Assembly (NCBI GenBank): GCA_964354335.1 | Contig: CAYGZJ010000001.1 | Span: 1 to 38,580, forward strand | DNA from: an uncultured Planctomycetales bacterium | GTDB lineage: Bacteria; Omnitrophota; Gorgyraeia; Gygaellales; Profunditerraquicolaceae | Direction: 5' to 3' | Length of the DNA: 38,580 bases | In this document: piece by piece, positions 153-37,740 of the stretch | Layout of the letters: every line of letters starts with the position of its first letter | How positions within the stretch are numbered: the first letter of the stretch is position 1 | Program-made: the position numbers and the translations under genes | The notes under the pieces: generated by a model | What the model saw: the letters and a program-made list of their open reading frames with translations, nothing else | The model's database searches: none | What the model was told of the DNA's origin: nothing

Positions 153-257
153 TATTCCTAGTTAATGGTTATAATCTTACCCTTAATAACGCGAGAATCG
201 CCCAATAATGCCATTAACTAGGAGTCATTAACTAAATGGCGATTTAGAGATAAAGAG
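153..257 (+). repeat. Direct repeat copy 1, flanking the Ehr-type operon on its downstream side. High-identity core 202-257; weaker similarity 153-201.
   Basis: 202-257 matches 7410-7465 at 53/56 positions in the same orientation. 153-201 resembles 7361-7409 at roughly 70 percent by eye. A 12-bp inverted partner is present (157-168 cctagttaatgg vs 211-222 ccattaactagg). Confidence 0.85.
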
Positions 258-827
258 ATAGGTTGAGGAGGTTTGGTGGGAAGGTTGTTCCTTGTCTAAA
301 TGAAGTCTCCCATGTAAGAATGCTAGTAATGTTTTTATAATTATTACTGGGCTTGGTGGGCATCCAGGAATATGCAAAATAACGGGCAAAATATTCTCTA
401 CGCCAGAACAGGTATAATAAGAGTCTTTGAATAAGCCGTCCTTCTTTGTACAGTCTCCCAAAGTAATCACAAATTTCGGATCAGGCATAGCTTCGTAAGT
501 CTTTTTAAGCGCCAGCTCCATGTTCTTAGAAACCGGACCAGTGACTAAAAGCGCATCTGCGTGGCGCGGGCTAGCTACAAAATCAATTCCAAAACGCTGG
601 ATATCATATAAAGGATTAGAGCAAGCGATTATCTCTGATTCGCATGCTCCACAGGATCCCGTATCAACTTCGCGGATATGGAATGACCTGCCGAATTTAG
701 CATGGATGGTCTTCTTAAGCTCTTCTCCTATCTTTTCCAGCTCTTGCGGAAATACAAAACCGGATAAGTCGATCTTTTCAGTAACCTTGCCCTTTTTAAG
801 GCTATTTTTTAGTATATGCAGGTTCAT
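228..827 (-). CDS. NuoB/HycG-like small subunit of a group-4-hydrogenase-related (Ehr-type) membrane complex
   Basis: 199-aa ORF. GSCGACESE, GDCTKKDG and GCPPSP supply the four Cys of the NuoB/HycG-type [4Fe-4S] cluster. It overlaps the large-subunit gene by 4 nt. The last ten codons and the TAA lie inside repeat copy 1. Confidence 0.85.
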   Translation of the reverse strand: MNLHILKNSLKKGKVTEKIDLSGFVFPQELEKIGEELKKTIHAKFGRSFHIREVDTGSCGACESEIIACSNPLYDIQRFGIDFVASPRHADALLVTGPVSKNMELALKKTYEAMPDPKFVITLGDCTKKDGLFKDSYYTCSGVENILPVILHIPGCPPSPVIIIKTLLAFLHGRLHLDKEQPSHQTSSTYLFISKSPFS

Positions 828-7348: not shown

Positions 7349-7360
7349 GAAAATTTGCTG

Positions 7361-7465
7361 GTTTCCCAGTTTATGGCAATATTTTAACCGAAATTATTGC
7401 TAAAAATGGCCAATAATGCCATTAACTAGAAGTCATTAACTAAAGCGCGATTTAGAGATAAAGAG
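7361..7465 (+). repeat. Direct repeat copy 2, on the upstream side of the Ehr-type operon. High-identity core 7410-7465.
   Basis: See copy 1. On the minus strand the core begins immediately after the TAA of the GIY-YIG gene. Confidence 0.85.
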
Positions 7466-7471
7466 GCGGGA

Positions 7472-7750
7472 TTAATCGTGGGATTCGCTTAACTGCATAA
7501 GAAGTGTTTTATCGCCAGATACAAGGGCCGCCTTCTTCTTTTTAGCCCAGCGCTTGATCTGTGCTTCACGTGCTTGCGCACTAGATCTGTTTTGAAACGG
7601 CTCTTTATAAACAACCTCAACCGGCCTGCGATTACTGGTATAATCGCCGCCCTTACCGGCATTGTGCTCGGTTAGTCTGCGGGAAAGGTCGGATGTCGAT
7701 CCAGTGTAAAAACTATTATCTTTACAACGCAGAATATAAACATACCACAT
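7472..7750 (-). CDS. Small GIY-YIG nuclease-superfamily protein (UPF0213/YhbQ-like)
   Basis: YVYILRC..SFYTGSTSDLSRRLTEHN is the GIY-YIG core. I place the start at the ATG at 7750 (MWYVYIL), which has AAGGAG 5 nt upstream. The ORF track extends to 7768. Confidence 0.8.
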   Translation of the reverse strand: MWYVYILRCKDNSFYTGSTSDLSRRLTEHNAGKGGDYTSNRRPVEVVYKEPFQNRSSAQAREAQIKRWAKKKKAALVSGDKTLLMQLSESHD

Positions 7751-7802
7751 ATTGCTCCTTCGACGCACTCGCCTAAACTAAACAACAACTCGCTTGCTCA
7801 GG

Positions 7803-7896
7803 ATGGTTCGCCGCGCCATTATGACAACGCCCTCACCCATTCAGCGCTCACGACAATGGTGAGCAAGCCCGAACGAAGTGAGGGCGCGTCGAACCA
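7803..7896 (-). other. GC-rich nested stem-loop between the tRNA-Gln 3' end and the GIY-YIG gene
   Basis: Three stacked helices are visible: 7803-7815/7885-7897 (13 bp, one mismatch), 7830-7836/7878-7884 (7 bp) and 7846-7851/7859-7864 (6 bp, 7-nt loop). No U-tract follows. Confidence 0.5.
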
Positions 7897-7967
7897 TTGC
7901 CCCGCATGGACTCGAACCATGATAACAAGATCCAGAATCTTGTGTCCTACCATTAGACGACAGGGCA
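7897..7967 (-). tRNA. tRNA-Gln (anticodon CUG)
   Basis: Hand-folded 71-nt cloverleaf. Acceptor UGCCCUG/CGGGGCA (U1-A72), D stem GUCU/GGAC, anticodon stem CAAGA/UCUUG with loop UUCUGGA, T arm CAUGG-UUCGAGU-CCAUG, discriminator A. CCA is not encoded. Confidence 0.85.
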
Positions 7968-7978
7968 GTTATGTAAAA

Positions 7979-8007
7979 AGTATATCGTGGAGAAGATGTT
8001 AAATCAA
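7979..8007 (-). promoter_or_regulatory. Candidate sigma-70 promoter for tRNA-Gln
   Basis: The minus strand reads TTGATT (8007-8002), 17 nt, TATACT (7984-7979). The -10 ends about 11 nt before the tRNA 5' end. Confidence 0.5.
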
Positions 8008-8061
8008 GAAGATTGTTTACGGGGATAACCCTGGTGTCCAAAAAGTGTCCACTGGGAACCT

Positions 8062-8094
8062 GTATAAACAAAAAGGACTCAAACGGTTAAGTCC
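8062..8094 (-). terminator. Weak intrinsic terminator after the zinc-ribbon gene
   Basis: The minus-strand RNA has GGACU(U)...(G)AGUCC, a 5-6 bp stem, followed by UUUUUGUUU. Confidence 0.3.
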
Positions 8095-8119
8095 GGCCCT
8101 TATAAGATTTGCTATGCTT

Positions 8120-8398
8120 TTATTTGTCTACCTTAGACCCTACTTTTTCTCCGGCTTCTACCTTTTCTTTTTTGTCTTCTTTTACATTTTTTACTTCTTT
8201 TACTTCTTCCTTTTTGTTTTCCTTCTTTTCTCCTTTGGAATCTTGATTAACCAAAGGAATTTTTTTATTTTTTTCATCTAAAATTTCCTGACACCTTGAA
8301 CATGCTAATACCCTTCTTCTTTTTTCATTTATAGTCATAACTATTATTTTTAAATAATTATGGGCTAATTTCGTCCCGCATCTTATGCAATTATTCAT
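8120..8398 (-). CDS. Hypothetical zinc-ribbon protein with a Lys/Glu-rich tail
   Basis: 92 aa with CIRC...CSRC (two CxxC pairs) and a C-terminal KE-rich low-complexity region. AAGGAGAG lies upstream of the ATG. Confidence 0.55.
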   Translation of the reverse strand: MNNCIRCGTKLAHNYLKIIVMTINEKRRRVLACSRCQEILDEKNKKIPLVNQDSKGEKKENKKEEVKEVKNVKEDKKEKVEAGEKVGSKVDK

Positions 8399-8447
8399 CT
8401 CGTCTCTCCTTTATCGTCTTGAATTTTCCTTTTTTCTTCTTCCCCAC

Positions 8448-8900
8448 TTATTCCTCTTTTAGAAATTTACATGAATCCATATTTAAATCAAATGTCTTGC
8501 TATCTAGATTTCCTTCGGGGAAAATGAGTGTTAATTTAACAAACATAATTTCCTTTCTTAAATCAAACGTTTTGTATTTTATCCCTTGGGCGGTGAAATC
8601 AATTTCAATAGGATTACCTGCGGGCATTTTGGGAGTAACAACTAGCGATTTCAGTCTATCTGCATCCAGAGAATCTATTTGATCTTTTTTTACAAACTTC
8701 TTGAACTCCTCTAAATTTGCTGGCCAGTTTTTATTTTTATGATAATACTGCACTAAGGCCTTTGTAAGTGGGTTGATGTACTCACCGGCTATTCCTAATC
8801 CTGTATCTGTGCTACCCTCCATACCTGCTCCACAATCTGAAGAATATAATAAAACTACTGATGCCAAGCATATAAGAAGAGATAGTCTTATAATTTTCAT
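8448..8900 (-). CDS. Hypothetical secreted protein
   Basis: 150 aa with an N-terminal signal-like segment MKIIRLSLLICLASVVLLYSS. A strong SD is present (AAAGGAGGAAAGAU-AUG). No recognisable domain. Confidence 0.55.
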   Translation of the reverse strand: MKIIRLSLLICLASVVLLYSSDCGAGMEGSTDTGLGIAGEYINPLTKALVQYYHKNKNWPANLEEFKKFVKKDQIDSLDADRLKSLVVTPKMPAGNPIEIDFTAQGIKYKTFDLRKEIMFVKLTLIFPEGNLDSKTFDLNMDSCKFLKEE

Positions 8901-9150
8901 ATCTTTCCTCCTTTAGCGTATCATACCAAACAAAAAGGCAGCCCCCCATTGAGAGAGTTGGCAATAAACTTTATCTGATTAACCTCATTACCACTCCTTT
9001 GCGATTACACGCTTATTATACTCCTAAATTCCAAAAAATTGTGAGTAATTTGGGAGACACTATCTTAGACTCATAGCCCCACTCCACATACCCCCCCGAC
9101 TAAGTGTCCATAATAGACACCAATTGGCACCAACACACACCAACAGCCAC

Positions 9151-9182
9151 AAAAAAAACTCCGTAAGTGCTTAACGGAGTTT
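9151..9182 (-). terminator. Rho-independent terminator
   Basis: 9156-9164 pairs with 9174-9182 (9 bp, 9-nt loop). An eight-U run overlaps the last two pairs of the 3' arm, leaving six unpaired U (complement of 9151-9156). Confidence 0.75.
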
Positions 9183-9225
9183 GCATTTACAACAAAATCA
9201 ATTATTTATGGAAATTTTCCTTATC

Positions 9226-9359
9226 GATCCCTGAATCTTGCGTCCTACCCCCCCCTCCTTCGCCCTTTTAATCTAAAGTAAGAGATCCGATGGGCTTCGG
9301 GGGGCTGCGCTCGCATATAGCTAACCAAATCTGGCTCGCTTGATTAGACGACAGGGCAG
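9226..9359 (-). pseudogene. tRNA-Gln 5'-half remnant interrupted by a 93-nt insert at the D-loop
   Basis: 9343-9359 is identical (17/17) to 7952-7968. 9226-9249 matches 7929-7951 with two substitutions and one indel. The pieces are separated by 9250-9342. The T arm and 3' acceptor strand are absent. Confidence 0.7.
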
Positions 9360-9385
9360 TAAGGTAATTTCTAGGAGCGGATTGA

Positions 9386-9414
9386 ATTATATATCTCCGT
9401 AGGGATTCTTGCAA
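9386..9414 (-). promoter_or_regulatory. Sigma-70 promoter (minus strand) driving the tRNA-half transcript
   Basis: TTGCAA (9414-9409), 17 nt, TATAAT (9391-9386). Confidence 0.6.
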
Positions 9415-9437
9415 TAGAAATATAAATATGCTATATT
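9409..9437 (+). promoter_or_regulatory. Sigma-70 promoter (plus strand) for the 9498 gene
   Basis: TTGCAA (9409-9414), 17 nt, TATATT (9432-9437). It uses the same palindromic hexamer as the divergent promoter. Confidence 0.55.
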
Positions 9438-9497
9438 GGGTTTGTTCAATAGCAGTGCTATGCGCCTACTGTTAAGAATGCCCTAAGGAGGTCATTA

Positions 9498-9944
9498 ATG
9501 AGAAGACTACAATACGCCGCCTTGGTTTTGTCCTTTCTACTAACCGGCACTTTCATTCTTTACGCTCAATCCGATGCAACATCAGCTAATAAAAAAGGTA
9601 CTGTAAGGCCGCTGCCTATTGTCACCTCATCAACCATTTCTGAAGCCGAAACAGATCAGGACACATTCGGCTATAAGATGGGGCAGGGCGTACTCAACAT
9701 AGCCACTGCCTGGACCGATATCCCCCAACAGATACAGGAAACCTCCAAAGAAAGCAACATCTTCGTGGGTGCCACCGTGGGACTTATCAAAGGGATTTTC
9801 ACCGGACTTTACCGCGGGGTCACCGGGGCAGTCGACGTGGCCACCTTCGGTGTTCCTCCGTATGACGATGCAAAGGCAGAGCCGAGATATACGGTGAAAG
9901 ACCCGGAAAAAGACGGATACAAAGTAAATCTCTTCAACTGGTAA
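9498..9944 (+). CDS. Secreted small protein resembling the exosortase-system-associated TIGR04073 family
   Basis: 148 aa with a signal peptide and an AAGGAGG SD. The pattern KMGQGVLNIATAWTDIPQQI ... GLIKG..TGLYRGVTGAVDVATFGVPP resembles the family signature as I recall it. It is the only plus-strand gene. Confidence 0.5.
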   Translation: MRRLQYAALVLSFLLTGTFILYAQSDATSANKKGTVRPLPIVTSSTISEAETDQDTFGYKMGQGVLNIATAWTDIPQQIQETSKESNIFVGATVGLIKGIFTGLYRGVTGAVDVATFGVPPYDDAKAEPRYTVKDPEKDGYKVNLFNW

Positions 9945-10001
9945 CCGCCAGGACTTCCAACCGAAACACTTCTTTTATTTAATACTTACTAGCTATTTGA
10001 T

Positions 10002-13000
10002 TTATTTTTCAGAGGACTCCATGGTCTTGCGCGCTGCTTCTGAGCGGGTAAGTTCAAACTTATCGAGGAACTTTGACTGGAATTTCTGCATATAGAGGAA
10101 AAGTCCGGGAGTGACAAAAAGCGTGATAATCTGTGAAAATATAAGCCCTCCGACTACGATAAGACCCAGCGGCCGGCGGGATTCTCCGTCAGCTCCGAAG
10201 CCCAACGCAATAGGCACTGCTCCCATGATCGCGGCTAAACCGGTCATCAGGATCGGGCGAAAACGTACAATACAGGCATCATAAATCGCGTCAAAGTCGC
10301 TGACATTTCCCTTGTTAAGATTGGCGTTGGCAAAGTCAACCATCATGATGCCGTTTTTAGCGACGATGCCCAACAACATGAACATGCCGACGTAGCCGTA
10401 AAGCGAAAGCTCTGACCCGCATAAGAAAAGCGTAAGCAGACCTCCGAAAGTAGCCACAGGTAGAGTAGTCAAAATAGTAAGTGGGTGGACATAATTTTCG
10501 TAAAGTATGCCCAGGACTATGTATTTAAGGAAAACAGCGATAATAATCAAAATGCCCAGACTTGCCACCGCCTCCTGAAACTGCTGGGCCTCCCCCTGGA
10601 AGAATCCGGTGACACCCGGAGGAAAAGCCTTAGCTGCCGCATTCTCTAAAGTAGTAGTAGCATTGCCGATCGGAACACCCGGGTCAACATTAAAAGAAAG
10701 TGTCGCAGCATTGAGCTGGTTATAGTGCGGCACATCCTGCGGTCCTACTCCCTGATCCCACTTAGCTATGGCGCTTAAAGGAACAAGATCTCCACTTCTT
10801 CCCCCGTGAGGAACAAGAGCGGCGGTCGACGTAGAATGCATATATATGTGCGAAAGATTCTCCGGATTTTTCTGGAACTTTTTGTCTAGCTCAACAATAA
10901 CATTATAGATATCAACATCCGTCTTAAAGGTAGTGACCTTTCCCTGCGCATAGGATAAGGCCAGGGCATTTTCAATATCCTCGGCAGTGATGCCAAAAGT
11001 TGAAGCCCGGTCACGGTTGATCTTTATATTAAGCTGGGGCATGTTCAGCTTGACGCTGTTTTGCACATCGCGGATACCCGGAAGCTTGCGCATAGTCTTC
11101 TCAAAATCCAAAGCAGTTTTATAAAGCTGGTCCTGATCCGGCCCGGTCAAAACATAGGAATACTTGGCACCCGATGCCGTGCTTTCGGCTCCGGAGCTTA
11201 TTTTTAAGGTCGGAACAGGCTCTAAGAATACAAATCCGCTAGGAATCCTTCCTAGCTGGCCGCGCAACTTTTTGGTGACATCCTGAATATTCTCTTTTCT
11301 TTCTTCAAGCGGTTTCAAAATACTGAAGAAAAACCCTGTGCTCTGATCCGCTCCCGGAGAAAGCCCGGTGACCGTGATAAACCTGTCTACCGCTTTATCA
11401 TTTAAAACTACCTTGTCTATCGTCTGCTGATAAAGCTGCACCTTCTTTGTGGATGTCCCCAGAGGCACCAATATCCCGCCGCTTATAGAGCCGCTATCGC
11501 CTTCAGGAAGAAAGGACTGCGGCAGGACCAGGAAAAAAATAATTGTGCCCACAAAACAAAACACCCAGGCGATAATCGTAGTCATTGGCCGCTTCAGGGT
11601 CCAGGTAAGCCAGACTCCGTATGTATCGATGACATCTTTCATGAATTTATTCATGAATTTCTGCAGTGATTTTTCTTTGGTCTTCCCCTTTTCCTCTAAC
11701 ATGCGCGCGCACATCATCGGCGTAAGGGTCAGGGAAATGACTCCAGAGCAGAGAATCGCCAGGATTACCGTGATCGCAAACTCCTGAAACACCCTTCCTA
11801 CAGTACCGCCCATAAATACCAACGGCACAAAAATGATCGCCAGGGACAAGGTCATGGAAATGATTGTAAAGGTGATCTCCTGCGCGCTCTCAATAGCCGC
11901 GGCTAATGGCTTTTTTCCTTTTTCAACCAGGCGGACTGTATTTTCCAATACGACAATGGCATCATCAACCACAAAACCCACTGAAAGCGTCAGGCCCATC
12001 AGCGAAAGGTTATCGAGGCTGAACCTAAAGACATACATAAGTATGAAGGTGGCAACAATGGATAAAGGCAGGGTGATACTGGGAATGATCGTGTCTGAAA
12101 GGCTGCCCAGAAATAAATAAATGATAAGGATGACCAGGATCAGCGCGATAACAATGGTAAGCTTTACATCATTGACTGAATCCACGATAGTAATGGACTT
12201 ATCGTAGAATATATCCACTTTTACCGAACCGGGAATTTCCTTTTGTAACTGCGCGATTGTCTCCCTGAGACGCTGGGCAAGAGCCACTGTATTAGAGCCG
12301 CCGACACGTGAGATAGCTACTACCACCGTTCCGCCGTGCACTCCCTCTCCAGACTTACCGTAATCGACGCTCATCACGTCATTATCAACGCTATCAATAC
12401 ACCTGCCGATATCCTTAAGTCTTATCGGCGCATTATTGCGGTAGGCGACAATGACATTCTCATAATCCTTAGCCAAGAAAAGCTGTCCCTTGGGCTCGAT
12501 AGAAAATGTGCGTACTTCCCCATTTAAACTTCCTCCAGGAACAGTAACTGTGCCGCTATTAATGGCATTGGCCACTTCGGCGATACCTATCTGGTAGGCG
12601 GACATTTTATTAGGATCAACCTGAACTCGTACCGCGGTCTTTGCGCCCCAGGTCTGCACCTGCGAAACATCCTGCACCATACTCAGGCGCTGGCCGATAG
12701 TCCTGTTCCCAAAATCATAGAGCTGTCCGGAAGTAAGGGTATCAGAGTTAACCAGTAAATACATAATCGGTGTATCGCTAGGATTAGTCTTGGAATAGCT
12801 GGGCGGCGCCGGAAGGTCAGTAGGAAGATTTCCTGTTGCGCGCTGAATTGCCGCCTGCACGTCAGGAGCAGCCAGATCAACGCTGCGGCTGAGCTCAAAG
12901 GTAAGCATGATCTTGGTCTGGCCTTCAGTGTTATCCGAAATAATGGTGTTAAGCCCGGGAATCTGGGTAAACTGATTTTCCAGAGGCGAAGCCACGGTCA

Positions 13001-32085: not shown

Positions 32086-35000
32086 TTACTGTTCCTTGGC
32101 TTCTCTTGCCTTCTTTTCTTCCACGATCTTCTGGGCGATTTCGGTGGGGACCTGCAGGTACTTGGAGAATTCCATAGTGGCATTGGCGCGCCCGCTGGAG
32201 AGCGAGCGGAATGCCGTGGCATAGCCGAACATCTCAGCTAACGGCGCTTCTGACTCGATGATCTTTTGTTTTCCCTTTGAATCCATATTAAGGATCTTGC
32301 CCCGGCGGGAACAGATATATCCTACGCAGGCGTTCACATATTCTTCCGGAGTAGTCACTACTAATGACATGTATGGTTCAAGCAGGACCGGTTTTGCCCG
32401 CATAAAGATTTCCTTGAAGCCCATTATCGCCGCCATGCGAAAGGCTATTTCCGAAGAGTCGACTTCGTGGTAAGAACCGTCATTAAGATCCACCTTGATA
32501 TCCACTATCGGGTAGCCCGCAAATACCCCCTTCTGCATCGCCTCCACAACCCCCTTCTCCACCGCCGGAATATAGGATTGCGGGATCGCTCCTCCTTTGA
32601 TGCTGTTGATAAAATCCAAACCCTGCCCCTGCGCATTAGGCGAAAGCTCCATCACCACATGGCCGTACTGGCCGCGGCCTCCGGACTGCTTGATGTATTT
32701 ACCTTCCCCCTCCGCCGTCTCCTGAATGGTCTCTCGGTAAGCCACTTTTGGCTGGCCCACAATCGCCTCAACCCCAAACTCTTCCTTGAGCCTATCCACA
32801 ATAATTTCAAGGTGCAGCTCGCCCATACCGGTAAGAATTGTCTCCTTGGTTTCTTCGTCTGTCTGCACCATAAAAGTCGGGTCTTCATCCATCAGTTTTG
32901 CCAGGCCCTTGCCTAATTTATCGCTGTCCCCGCGCGACTTAGGCGCAATACTCAAAGAAACCACCGGCACCGGGAACTGTATCGCCTCAAGCAAAACCGG
33001 TTTTTCCGGATCGCAAAGCGTATCTCCGGTGATGGTGTTGGCTAAACCCGGGATCGCCACGATATCTCCGGCAAAAGCGAAGTCGATATTTTCGCGCTGA
33101 TTGGCATGCATCTGCACGATCCTGCCGATACGCTCTTTTTTGTTCTTGGTGCTGTTTAAAATATATGTGCCTGTGCCTAAAAATCCGGAGTAGACGCGGA
33201 CATAGACAAGCTTTCCCATGTGCGGGTCTGCCTGGACCTTAAAAGCGAGCGCGGTCGGCGGCTCATTGACATCAGGATGAAACTCTATTTCCTTCTCCGG
33301 ATCATCCGGATCGTGCCCTTTTACCGCGGGCATGTCCAGCGGCGACGGCAAATAGAGGACTACCGCGTCCAGAAGTTTCTGCACCCCTTTGTTTTTGAAT
33401 GAGGCGCCGCAAAGCACCGGCACAGCCTTGTTGGCCACTGTACCTTTGCGGATGGCCTGAATGAGCTCTTCCTGGGTGATGGAATTGGCATCCTCCAGAT
33501 ATTTTTTCATCAGGACATCGTCAAAGGCGACTGCCCGCTCAACGAGCGTACGGCGGAATTCCGCTGCCTTCTCTTTTAGGTCCTCGGGGATTTCATCGAC
33601 GGTATACTCCTTGCCCAATGTTTCATCCTGGTAGAAGTAGGCTTTCATTTCGATCAAATCCACCACCCCGCGGAAATTCTCCTCGGCTCCGATAGGAATT
33701 TCCAAAGGCAGGCCGTTACCTTCCAGTATCTGGTCGATCCCATTGACCACTGCGTAAAAATCCGCTCCGGTGCGATCCATCTTATTGATGAAGGCGATCT
33801 TGGGAACGCTGTATTTGTTGGATTGATGCCAGACAGTCTCTGACTGCGGCTCCACTCCGCCGACCGCGCAGAAAACCGCGACTGCGCCGTCTAAAACACG
33901 AAGCGACCGCTCGACTTCGGCGGTAAAATCCACGTGGCCGGGAGTATCGATGATATTGATGCGGTAATCCTTCCAGAAACAGGTGGTGGCCGCGGCGGTA
34001 ATAGTGATGCCGCGCTCGCGCTCCTGCTTCATCCAGTCCATCTGAGTCGCCCCATCATGGACTTCGCCGATTTTATGGGATTTGCCGGTATAAAAAAGGA
34101 TCCTCTCGGTAGTGGTGGTTTTTCCGGCGTCGATATGCGCCATGATCCCGATATTGCGCACCAGGCGTAAATCGATTTTGGGAGTCGGCCGCGCCTGCGG
34201 TTGACGCTTTAATTCTTTTTCTTCTTCCACCTGCGCAGCTTCTTCTGTAGGCGCCTGGACCTCTTCCTGCGGAGGTGTTTCCTGCTTTGCGTATTCTTCA
34301 ACAACCGGTTCTGCTACGGGGACTTCCTGTGGCAATATTTCTTGCGGTATTTCTTGGGGAGCCTCTACTTGCGCAGTTTCTACCTTCGGCGGCGTAAGAA
34401 TATCTTCTTGGACATTCGCCGTTTCAGGCGCAGCGCCAGCCTGATGCTGGAGCCGGCTATTAAGATGCGTGATTTCTTCGGTAAGCAACCTGATGCGTTC
34501 TTCTTTTTCCTCGAATTCTTTTTCTAAAACGCTGAACTCTTCATTTAGTTTATTGAATTCTATCTTTGGCACCCACTCGCTTTCCTTTTCTTTTTTCCTG
34601 TATTCCGTAATGGTGGCTAAATGGGCCTTGATGTCATTGGCCAAGCGCTCGATCTGATGCTTTTGCGCTTCTATCTGGTCAGACTTATCTTTGATTTCTT
34701 TATCCAGCCCCTGGATTTTATCGCTTAGCTCGCGGGCTTCCTTAGACAATCCTACACTTTTAGAAAATTCCCTTTCCAGCTCCTGCTCTTTAGCGCTGAA
34801 CTTTCCCCGCAAGTCCAGGTTTTCCGCCTTTACTTTATCCAGCATTTCTTCGGAGGTAGCCACCCAGTCTTTGCGCCGGTCTAATTCTATTTGCAGCTGG
34901 GCAGCTTGCGCCTTTGCCGGTTCTAGCTCATTCTGCATCTGGACAAAACCGGCTTTAGTTACTTCCAATTCATGCTGGAGCGTAACCACCTGAGCCTGCA

Positions 35001-35172
35001 GCCGCTGTATCCTTTGCTCCTGATAATAAGAATCCGAGCCCGGCTCTTTGGGAAGGGCTTGCCGACGGACGCGACCGGATTTTTCTTCGCTGCTGGCGAA
35101 GAAAAGATAAAGGGAGTATATGATAAGTATAACTCCGCAGACTAAAATAATCGGCACAAGAATATTATTCAT
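32086..35172 (-). CDS. Elongation factor G fused to a 332-aa N-terminal TM / coiled-coil / acidic-linker extension
   Basis: aa 333-1028 form a complete EF-G. Motifs present are [31 protein letters not shown] and [10 protein letters not shown]. aa 5-26 form a TM helix followed by KSGRVRRQ. aa ~50-240 are heptad-rich. aa ~245-330 are P/E/Q-rich. There is no in-frame stop anywhere. Confidence 0.8.
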
Positions 35173-37462: not shown

Positions 37463-37740
37463 AGGCTTCGGGGTATTTTACATACTCTGGCTACTGCGGG
37501 TAAAATAAAAATCCCCGCATTGTGCCGTTGGATAGACAGTCTGAACCGATTTGGTTTCAGGTGGGTGCCGCTCTTGAATGCCTAAGCGCTCAAGAAGTTG
37601 AGGCCCCCAGATAGTTAGTGTTGGTTCAACAATTATCAAATTTCCAACGCGCACCGCAGGGATTTTTAAAAGAGCTTTGTCTTGCGAAAGAAGTATACCA
37701 TATATATAAAAGGAAATCAACCCGCTTATTTTTCAAGCAC

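Follow-up and report, generated by a model that had tools for sequence, protein, structure and literature searches.

The 38,580-nt stretch of DNA analysed here (the window, 38.6 kb) belongs to an uncultured Omnitrophota lineage and contains, between 9414 and 9151, a locus made of a promoter, a partial copy of a tRNA-Gln gene interrupted by an insert, and a terminator. All coordinates are window positions, and the features of the locus are read on the minus strand. With slightly more confidence than doubt, we interpret this locus as an orphaned 5′ half of tRNA-Gln at a junction resembling an attachment (att) site, secondarily split by a low-copy insertion restricted to the D-loop. It is most likely the scar of a genome rearrangement, rather than a proven new RNA gene. 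We propose that the orphan, which spans about positions −9 to 38 of tRNA-Gln(CUG), marks an attL-like junction. The most economical description is one of a familiar kind, namely a tRNA-gene fragment that was displaced and now lies at a recombination junction; what is unusual here is that the 5′ half was displaced, that it comes with a promoter and a terminator, that the cassette interval has no integrase, and that the fragment is split by a 93-nt element.

Only one tRNA was found in the window by ARAGORN and the Rfam tRNA model, tRNA-Gln(CUG) at 7897-7967, and it is from this intact gene, its partner, that the duplicated 5′ half derives. A preliminary description of the locus, made from the letters alone, had reported a split copy of the 5′ half, with 17 identical nucleotides out of 17 between 9343-9359 and 7952-7968, and a second match at 9226-9249 in which the loop reads UUCAGGG in place of UUCUGGA. 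Both matches were confirmed, as was the split of the D-loop by 93 nt. Identity in the first block extends to 18/18 (9360-9343 against 7969-7952, i.e. tRNA positions −2 to 16), covering the acceptor 5′ strand, U8 and C9, the D-stem 5′ strand and the start of the D-loop; with the leader included, 25 nt are found at 92% identity, and similarity starts some 9 nt upstream of position 1. A BLAST of this 18-mer within the window gave an E-value of 1.3e-4. The second block, composed of the end of the D-loop, the D-stem 3′ strand and a decayed anticodon stem-loop, matches 7951-7929 (GGTAGGACACAAGATTCTGGATC) with 21/23 identity. The two blocks are not due to chance, since they are collinear, and contiguous in a sister strain.

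Three alleles of the locus were compared: those of the window, of contig L001 (Logan SRR32827935) and of contig L087 (JGI Ga0315275). In all three, tRNA homology stops at the 3′ edge of the anticodon loop (positions 37-39) and unrelated sequence follows; the loop remnant itself differs in each strain (UUCAGGG, UUCAGGA and UUCUGAA). The anticodon loop is reportedly, in an account attributed to Williams in 2002, a classical crossover sublocation. A distance of 1.39 kb separates the fragment from the intact tRNA-Gln, which lies downstream of it; both are on the minus strand. No tRNA 3′ half was found after the fragment, and the window contains neither a complementary partner nor another tRNA-Gln fragment. 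ARAGORN and Infernal detected no tRNA at the locus, where the T arm and the 3′ strand are missing, in keeping with the earlier statement that it cannot be a functional tRNA.

Integration into tRNA genes usually leaves scars in the form of partial tRNA copies. The Islander method accepts a 5′ fragment lying upstream of the tRNA gene; one found downstream is rejected, as is a 3′ fragment found upstream. By these standards, the fragment corresponds to a portion of an intact tRNA gene on the same replicon (18/18 plus 21/23), it is a 5′ fragment placed upstream on the same strand (9360-9226 versus 7967-7897), and the homology ends at a canonical crossover sublocation in the three alleles. No integrase gene was found inside the interval, whose only open reading frames (ORFs), of 150 and 92 aa, have no integrase domain.

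The interval carries repeats at both ends, about 65 to 130 nt away from the tRNA sequences. Three to four TTGGTGY repeats and a TGGACAC follow the orphan, directly past its terminator (four repeats in L087, with 12-nt spacing), and TGGACAC is found twice before the tRNA promoter, so that GGTGTY/GGACAC repeats (GGACAC/GGTGTC) bound the interval on each side. Elsewhere in the window, TGGACAC has zero occurrences outside of the interval ends. The 19-mer GTGGACACTTTTTGGACAC, located at 8052-8034, 66 nt before the tRNA 5′ end and behind a terminator hairpin, was found exactly conserved in four otherwise unrelated proviral contigs of IMG/VR (Table 1). In both L094 and L096, a tyrosine-integrase gene with the domains Int_N (PF24624) and Phage_integrase (PF00589) has the 19-mer at its 3′ end, 60-80 nt from a tRNA 3′ end; in L095, it is about 100 nt from a tRNA fragment at the edge of an island; and in L094 and L097 inverted GTGTCCA copies are close to it. 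By a rough estimate, the 19-mer is expected less than once by chance in this collection, and its positions are clearly non-random. This suggests that it may be a widely conserved arm-type site of Int_N (PF24624) integrases. Because the 19-mer recurs non-randomly at integrase/tRNA junctions, we read the repeats of the interval in the same way, and propose the GTGGACAC repeats and the TTGGTGTC array as putative integrase arm-type sites. Scans of viral contigs for the constant 3′ segment of the locus and for the GGTGTC array found nothing. The tRNA-Gln gene itself holds a GGACAC, the proposed arm-type hexamer (7942-7947, minus strand: D-stem 3′ strand, A26 and C27), directly 3′ of the point where the 93-nt element is inserted.

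The cargo of the interval varies by strain. In contig L082 (ENA), the zinc-ribbon ORF is accompanied by a PilZ protein of 264 aa and an ORF of 136 aa. Each small-gene cassette ends with a module of about 75 nt, in which a terminator is followed by GGACAC; L082 has three of them, at 265-340, 1393-1469 and 2083-2160. Upstream of tRNA-Gln, these modules form an integron-like, strain-variable array, with no recombinase gene nearby.

The mechanism we propose is as follows. Incoming DNA would have entered the tRNA-Gln gene at the anticodon loop, presumably by the action of an integrase, and would have supplied a replacement promoter and 5′ half, giving the intact gene now at 7967-7897, while the original 5′ half and its upstream promoter would have been displaced by 1.39 kb. 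The attL-like junction would then be the chromosomal promoter and 5′ tRNA half joined to one arm of the element, which would comprise the terminator, the repeat array and the invariant 28 nt; the other arm would be the module next to the tRNA. The orphan is probably still transcribed from TTGCAA-17-TATAAT, and the transcript would continue for some 75 nt into element-derived sequence, up to the intrinsic terminator. Such an RNA is predicted to measure about 230 nt in the window and about 137 nt in the strain without insert, and would be a by-product of the rearrangement. The split of the D-loop would be a separate, later event, by which a structured element of 90-93 nt came to lie between U16 and G18.

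The comparison with related genomes advised in the preliminary description was carried out, and gave segment identities, the presence or absence of the insert, and a second insert site. The L001 locus is orthologous to that of the window: identity reaches 98.7% in the neighbouring 148-aa gene and 100% in both the shared promoter region and the 3′ segment. L087 has the L001-type leader allele, with a different anticodon-loop remnant. Identities were 96-99% for the 148-aa coding sequence, 98-100% for the shared promoter and 5′ untranslated region, 58-60% for the −10 box and leader (9361-9403, window versus L001/L087), 78-83% for tRNA-like block 2, 75% for the downstream non-coding spacer, 95.6% for the insert (window versus L087), and 100% in all three alleles for an AU-rich segment of 28 nt (9210-9183); the terminator stem is intact in L001 and L087. 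The −10 box reads TATAAT in the window, AATAAT in L001 and AATAAC in L087. The remnant of the anticodon arm evolves as fast as neutral spacer. Given that the identity of block 2 is close to that of the spacer, and that the −10 box varies, the tRNA-like part behaves like a decaying pseudogene, and there is no clear sign that the promoter is maintained. Rapid decay in close relatives had been named beforehand as an outcome that would speak against a dedicated RNA: it is observed for the tRNA-like part, whereas the 28-nt 3′ segment and the terminator are kept. The statement that full transcription signals are retained holds for the window, with its consensus promoter and terminator; the −10 box is weaker in L001 and L087.

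Between the window and L001, the 148-aa gene (9498-9944) differs at 1.3% of nucleotides and the adjacent acrB 3′ end (10002-10746) at 6.7%, and the 57-nt spacer between these two genes can hardly be aligned. The ancestry of this region is mosaic, which suggests that recombination occurred recently around the RNA locus.

Concerning the transcription signals, the strong promoter noticed earlier was found at 9414-9386 with a score of 10/12, which makes it the top promoter-like site of the region 7600-10000 in a promoter scan. Its −35 hexamer TTGCAA, which is conserved, is a palindrome, and is also used by a divergent plus-strand promoter of the 148-aa gene (TTGCAA-17-TG-TATATT, 9409-9437). This single hexamer at 9409-9414 therefore serves back-to-back promoters, with −10 boxes TATAAT (9391-9386, minus) and TG-TATATT (9432-9437, plus). 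The final 7 nt or so of the predicted leader are similar to the leader of the true tRNA gene (repeat D2). An AU-rich stretch of about 45 nt separates block 2 from the terminator hairpin. This terminator, described as a 9-bp hairpin and a run of eight U, is indeed present at 9182-9151 (−11 kcal/mol); it had been missed by the automatic scan because its 9-nt loop exceeds the 8-nt limit of that scan. In contrast to what had been reported, no ATG frame of 38 codons exists: the longest ATG-initiated frame in the transcript has 23 codons (ATG at 9317). No conserved ORF was detected, the ATG at 9317, which is inside the insert, being missing from the other two insert copies. Finally, Rfam was searched with Infernal both at the gathering threshold and at E ≤ 10. 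No family explains the locus, the matches to PyrR, L31-leader and STnc390 being all far below threshold, and the hit to a known RNA family that had been considered able to overturn the idea of a new RNA did not appear.

The insert measures exactly 93 nt in the window, between U16 and G18 of the D-loop, and its ends are CAAGCGAG... and ...GGAGGGGGG. In L001 it is exactly absent, TAAT and GGTA being contiguous, with neither target duplication nor scar; in L087 it is present at the orthologous locus and at the same D-loop site. A third copy was found in L082 and L086 (the latter also from JGI Ga0315275), again at this D-loop position; it interrupts another partial tRNA-Gln copy, of 27 nt, which forms the leader of an intact tRNA. 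The order there is tRNA promoter, ACTGCCCTGTCGTCTAAT, 90-nt insert, GGTAGGACA, 14-nt spacer, complete tRNA-Gln and GIY-YIG gene. The insert is a discrete element, because it is polymorphic between near-identical strains and occupies the same D-loop site in two loci. It is always sense-oriented, downstream of a promoter in both locations, and always in a dispensable tRNA-Gln 5′ copy. Its presence does not track the flanking haplotype: the 3′ allele is common to the window and L001, the leader allele to L087 and L001, and the insert to the window and L087. The three distinct sequences, of 93 (window), 91 (L087) and 90 nt (L082/L086), are 94-96% identical. Further copies were found neither in the window by BLAST, nor by a covariance model in 16 related loci (163 kb) beyond the tRNA-Gln sites, nor in 2.9 million viral contigs; a 20-nt core of the insert is present in just two contigs of the JGI metagenome collection, both in tRNA-Gln context. 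Direct reading revealed neither terminal inverted repeats nor target-site duplication. A derivation from the leader of the GIY-YIG gene, with which it has CAAGCGAG...GCGAGYGC...CGAAGGAG in common, was considered and rejected, as the similarity is no better than that of random window segments.

The insert folds as proposed earlier, into a hairpin with a C6/G6 helix and an inner GCCC/GGGC helix, at −33.6 kcal/mol. Relative to shuffled sequences, z is −2.5 for the sense strand and −0.7 for the opposite strand. The fold comprises a hairpin P1 (AGC.GAGCCA-GNUU-UGGUU.AGCU) and a long hairpin P3 (CCCYYC/GGRGGG, GAA/GAA loop, GCCC/GGGC, AUCG/AAAA loop, GAUCU/AGAUU), whose base helix is C6/G-run, CCCUCC/GGAGGG or CCCUUC/GGAGGG depending on the copy. 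Among the three distinct sequences, 98.8% of the cells of the pair table are paired, with zero double-sided covariation. A candidate helix outside of the insert, H1, would pair nucleotides 5-10 of the tRNA-like part (CCUGUC, 9356-9351) with CGAUAAGG; one of its pairs is G.U, A-U or G-C according to the strain (n=3, not significant), and RNAalifold favours an alternative hairpin with UUUUGUUG. A long-range rod obtained by single-sequence folding (CCCUG/CAGGG, CCUUA/UAAGG and GAAAUU/AAUUUC) was discarded, as it is not conserved in L001 or L087.

Several observations weigh against the interpretation of the locus as an integration scar. The main weakness is that no integrase was found in the interval, nor among the larger ORFs of the window that were searched, and the element would have to be degenerate or to depend on mobilisation in trans. 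Displacement of a 5′ half is also a rarer orientation than that of a 3′ half. Neither the empty site, in which the TTGCAA promoter would drive an intact tRNA-Gln, nor an excised circle was found among the few related contigs. At the internal cassette boundaries of L082, the GGACAC module occurs without a tRNA core, so simple tandem integration fails to explain the array, and the arrangement seen in L082/L086 (18 nt, insert, GGTAGGACA, 14-nt spacer, tRNA) fits no single simple event. As to the RNA, the substitutions in the insert are all pair-compatible or in loops, and both the insert and the 28-nt segment are conserved above the 75% of the spacer, close to the 96% of the neighbouring coding sequence. 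Together with the pair of H1 that changes from A-U to G.U to G-C across strains, this pairing and conservation are compatible with selection on an RNA, or on a DNA site.

A genuine RNA gene is the first alternative to consider, namely a trans-acting or scaffold non-coding RNA evolved from a duplicate of tRNA-Gln, in which the D-stem and its closing helix would present the 90-nt structured domain and the invariant 28 nt would be a functional 'seed'; the domain would be expressed also as a tRNA-Gln 5′ leader in sister strains. In favour of such a gene are the consensus promoter and terminator, and the 28 nt and terminator stem kept in three strains while the flanks diverge. The conservation of the insert, the three versions of the P3 base helix, the H1 pair, the sense orientation behind promoters at both sites and the folding of the sense strand, but not of the antisense strand, better than shuffles point the same way. 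On the other hand, only three distinct sequences are available, the controls were not exceeded, the minimum-free-energy folds of the three alleles disagree and the RNAalifold consensus chooses another helix than H1. The −10 box is worn to AATAAC in L087, the 90-nt domain is wholly missing in L001, the locus is missing from the next nearest genome (L002), and Rfam has no match. Pairing with mRNAs, a test advised at the outset, was searched for with the 28-nt 3′ segment against 32 translation-initiation regions of the window: the best duplex, at −14.4 kcal/mol, equals the shuffled mean, i.e. no target rises above random. Conservation of the 3′ segment is equally expected of an att arm at the DNA level, and because of this we consider the RNA gene unlikely. 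The purpose-built novel RNA implied by the preliminary description is not supported: against it stand the polymorphism of the insert and its second location, the decay of block 2, the variable −10 and shared −35 boxes, and also the displaced-fragment configuration, with putative arm-type repeats on both sides and variable cargo. Equally doubtful, in our view, is a broader form of the idea, in which the 90-93-nt element would be an undescribed structured RNA module, similar to the intervening sequences (IVSs) of rRNA genes and specific to tRNA-Gln-derived D-loops in this Omnitrophota lineage, kept by selection and expressed from tRNA-type promoters both on its own, in an RNA of about 230 nt, and as a tRNA-Gln 5′ leader, with the D-stem as scaffold; it would be either a real non-coding RNA gene or a new tRNA-targeted mini mobile element.

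The other alternatives bear on the insert. It may be an active non-autonomous mobile mini-element specific for the D-arm of tRNA-Gln (between GTCGTCTAAT and GGTAGGAC), inserted and excised precisely by an enzyme encoded elsewhere, and surviving only in dispensable tRNA-Gln copies, the RNA locus being one landing pad. We regard this as possible, although not probable. The identical insertion point in two different loci, the precise absence without duplicated target or scar, and a presence uncorrelated with flanking haplotype agree with it; moreover, the L086 and L087 copies, from one metagenome, differ at about 6%, making recent gene conversion unlikely, and the right-hand homology in L082 is just 9 nt, which is short for homologous recombination. 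Yet the insert has 1-2 copies per genome, it was seen in no viral contig and in only the two JGI contigs with tRNA-Gln context, it has no terminal inverted repeats or target duplication, and no transposase is nearby. Miniature inverted-repeat transposable elements or IS200-IS605 derivatives would be recognised by many copies, varied short-target sites, terminal inverted repeats or target duplications, none of which was found. Besides, a single insertion followed by recombination, between strains and between the two homology blocks that flank the insert, can give the same pattern. Two mechanisms thus fit the movement of the insert: site-specific insertion with precise excision, or one insertion then shuffling. 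In the latter, recombination between tRNA-Gln-derived repeats and between strains would use the flanking blocks (18 nt and about 19 nt), and selection would remove arrangements with the insert inside a functional tRNA. Lastly, the locus could be the 5′ half of a split or intron-containing tRNA, like archaeal split tRNAs or bulge-helix-bulge introns, a reading for which the clean position of the insert in the D-loop and the D-stem kept in all alleles might be invoked. No 3′ half, complementary partner or second fragment exists in the window, however, the anticodon stem is destroyed with a different loop in each strain, an intact tRNA-Gln(CUG) lies 1.4 kb away, Rfam gave no group I, intron or other ribozyme match at E ≤ 10, and no bulge-helix-bulge could be drawn at the junctions by direct reading. 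We conclude that a split or spliced tRNA is effectively refuted, and extremely improbable.

Coming back to the displaced 5′ half, the known displaced tRNA fragments of islands and prophages (Islander; tycheposon-type) resemble it by a partial copy in the same orientation as the intact gene, a strain-variable cargo between the two copies, a homology breakpoint at the anticodon loop and, here, putative arm-type motifs at the junctions. They differ in that here the 5′ and not the 3′ half is displaced, the 1.4-kb interval has no integrase, the fragment lies between a promoter and a terminator, as a potential transcription unit, and a secondary insertion took place. Regulatory RNAs that are tRNA-derived or tRNA-like share the origin from a tRNA gene, and a promoter and terminator of their own, but the present locus has no cloverleaf or T arm, and its tRNA-like part is the one that evolves fastest. 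For the insert, the closest analogy is with the IVSs of rRNA, stem-loops of about 90-150 nt located in a loop of 23S or 16S genes and sporadic among copies and close strains. IVSs have no transposase, terminal repeats or target duplication; they are found in functional rRNAs and removed by RNase III. The insert is alike in size, loop placement and sporadic presence, whereas it resides in a tRNA leader or in a tRNA fragment without function, not in a functional rRNA. Palindrome-associated transposable elements derived from IS200/IS605 are also small, with subterminal hairpins, precise presence or absence without duplicated target, and strand-specific orientation. However, they need a 4-5-nt target and have many copies per genome, compared to 1-2 copies at one tRNA-Gln D-loop position here, and no TnpA gene is seen near the insert.

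Table 1. Coordinates of the locus, of its interval and of related elements
Feature	Position	Strand	Remarks
Sigma70-type promoter	9414-9386	minus	−35 TTGCAA (9414-9409), 17-nt spacer, −10 TATAAT (9391-9386)
Predicted 5′ leader, ~25 nt	9361-9385	minus	hypervariable between alleles
tRNA-Gln-derived block 1	9343-9360	minus	ACTGCCCTGTCGTCTAAT
Structured insert, 93 nt	9250-9342	minus	in D-loop, between TAAT and GGTA
tRNA-Gln-derived block 2	9226-9249	minus	GGTAGGACGCAAGATTCAGGGATC
Candidate H1 helix, 3′ strand	9219-9226	minus	CGAUAAGG
AU-rich 28-nt segment	9183-9210	minus	CATAAATAATTGATTTTGTTGTAAATGC; identical in all three alleles
Intrinsic terminator	9151-9182	minus	AAACTCCGT / 9-nt loop / ACGGAGTTT + T8; 9-bp stem, U8, −11 kcal/mol
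TTGGTGY repeat array	9097-9150	minus	3 repeats, then ATGGACAC (TTTTTGGACAC)
Cargo interval	8120-9096	minus	cassette promoter region and two ORFs
150-aa lipoprotein-like ORF	8448-8900	minus	no homologue among 5.8 billion proteins
92-aa zinc-ribbon-like ORF	8120-8398	minus	cargo
~75-nt module	8030-8105	minus	terminator hairpin GGCCGGACTTAACCGTTTGAGTCC + T-run, then TATACAGGTTCCCAGTGGACACTTTTTGGACACC
Intact tRNA-Gln(CUG) gene	7967-7897 (with promoter 8007-7897)	minus	promoter TTGATT-17-TATACT (8007-7979)
GIY-YIG leader element	7770-7896	minus	window
GIY-YIG leader element, other loci	L085:7016-7134, L083:1420-1552, L088:1058-1192		
GIY-YIG leader element, further loci	L089:9861-10002, L090:40-187, L091:141-260		
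19-mer copies	L094:4013-4031, L096:118-136, L095:7515-7533, L097:14142-14160		IMG/VR

We also examined the neighbourhood. Read along the minus strand, the genes are DXS, POR, gltX, three small ORFs and TolC/MFP/AcrB; after AcrB come a 148-aa secreted protein (plus strand), the RNA locus and the 150-aa lipoprotein-like ORF, then the 92-aa zinc-ribbon ORF, tRNA-Gln, a structured leader, a 92-aa GIY-YIG protein and the nuo operon. The AcrB-type pump is 91% identical to a protein of a Candidatus Omnitrophota metagenome-assembled genome (L002), the nearest GTDB genome, where synteny breaks right after acrB, and which therefore has no orthologous locus. A distant Omnitrophota relative (L085) has DXS, POR, gltX, PilZ, tRNA-Gln and GIY-YIG in succession. 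The distance from gltX to tRNA-Gln is about 10 kb in the window and one gene in L085, meaning that some 10 kb accumulated 5′ of tRNA-Gln in the lineage of the window. Further away, a full-length 6S RNA is found at 37508-37665 on the minus strand (Rfam RF00013, 63.4 bits), and an EF-G-like protein of 1028 aa is encoded at 32086-35172, minus strand, with a GTPase domain starting at residue 338 and an N-terminal extension that has no Pfam match.

On the other side of tRNA-Gln, a conserved, highly structured element of about 120-150 nt occupies the space between the tRNA 3′ end and the start codon of GIY-YIG in several Omnitrophota lineages (Table 1). In L083, L088, L090 and L092/L093, no tRNA gene was found upstream of it. 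RNAalifold gave compensatory changes in 11 of its 28 pairs, e.g. GCCAUGGU/ACCAUGGC versus GCCACCCU/AGGGUGGC; the outer helix starts from the tRNA 3′ end, the Shine-Dalgarno region is predicted to be sequestered, and Rfam has no match. This element may be an undescribed RNA, either cis-regulatory or belonging to a mobile element. Right after the tRNA 3′ end (7889-7897, minus), ATGGTTCGA copies the T-arm 5′ strand and loop of the tRNA (ATGGTTCGAGTCCAT), and in L083 the element is preceded by an apparent 3′-end remnant of tRNA-Gln (T arm and acceptor 3′ strand), which hints that the GIY-YIG unit may travel with a tRNA 3′ fragment. Beyond it, a direct repeat of about 116 nt with 78% identity (7350-7465 and 142-257) flanks the 7-kb nuo operon. 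Past GIY-YIG, the L082 sequence matches window positions 154-262, i.e. the repeat copy beyond nuo, so that nuo may have been inserted as a block downstream of GIY-YIG.

If the locus is indeed a displaced 5′ half, the 5′ side of tRNA-Gln would be an accretion site for small gene cassettes in this Omnitrophota lineage. Orphaned tRNA halves would then persist as promoter-driven units, which annotation pipelines and screens for small RNAs would call novel RNAs. The insert is the unusual residue, structured, conserved, low-copy, and found at one nucleotide position of tRNA-Gln-derived DNA. Should it prove mobile or functional, it would represent a new type of tRNA-associated element, and a natural case of an RNA domain carried on a tRNA scaffold.

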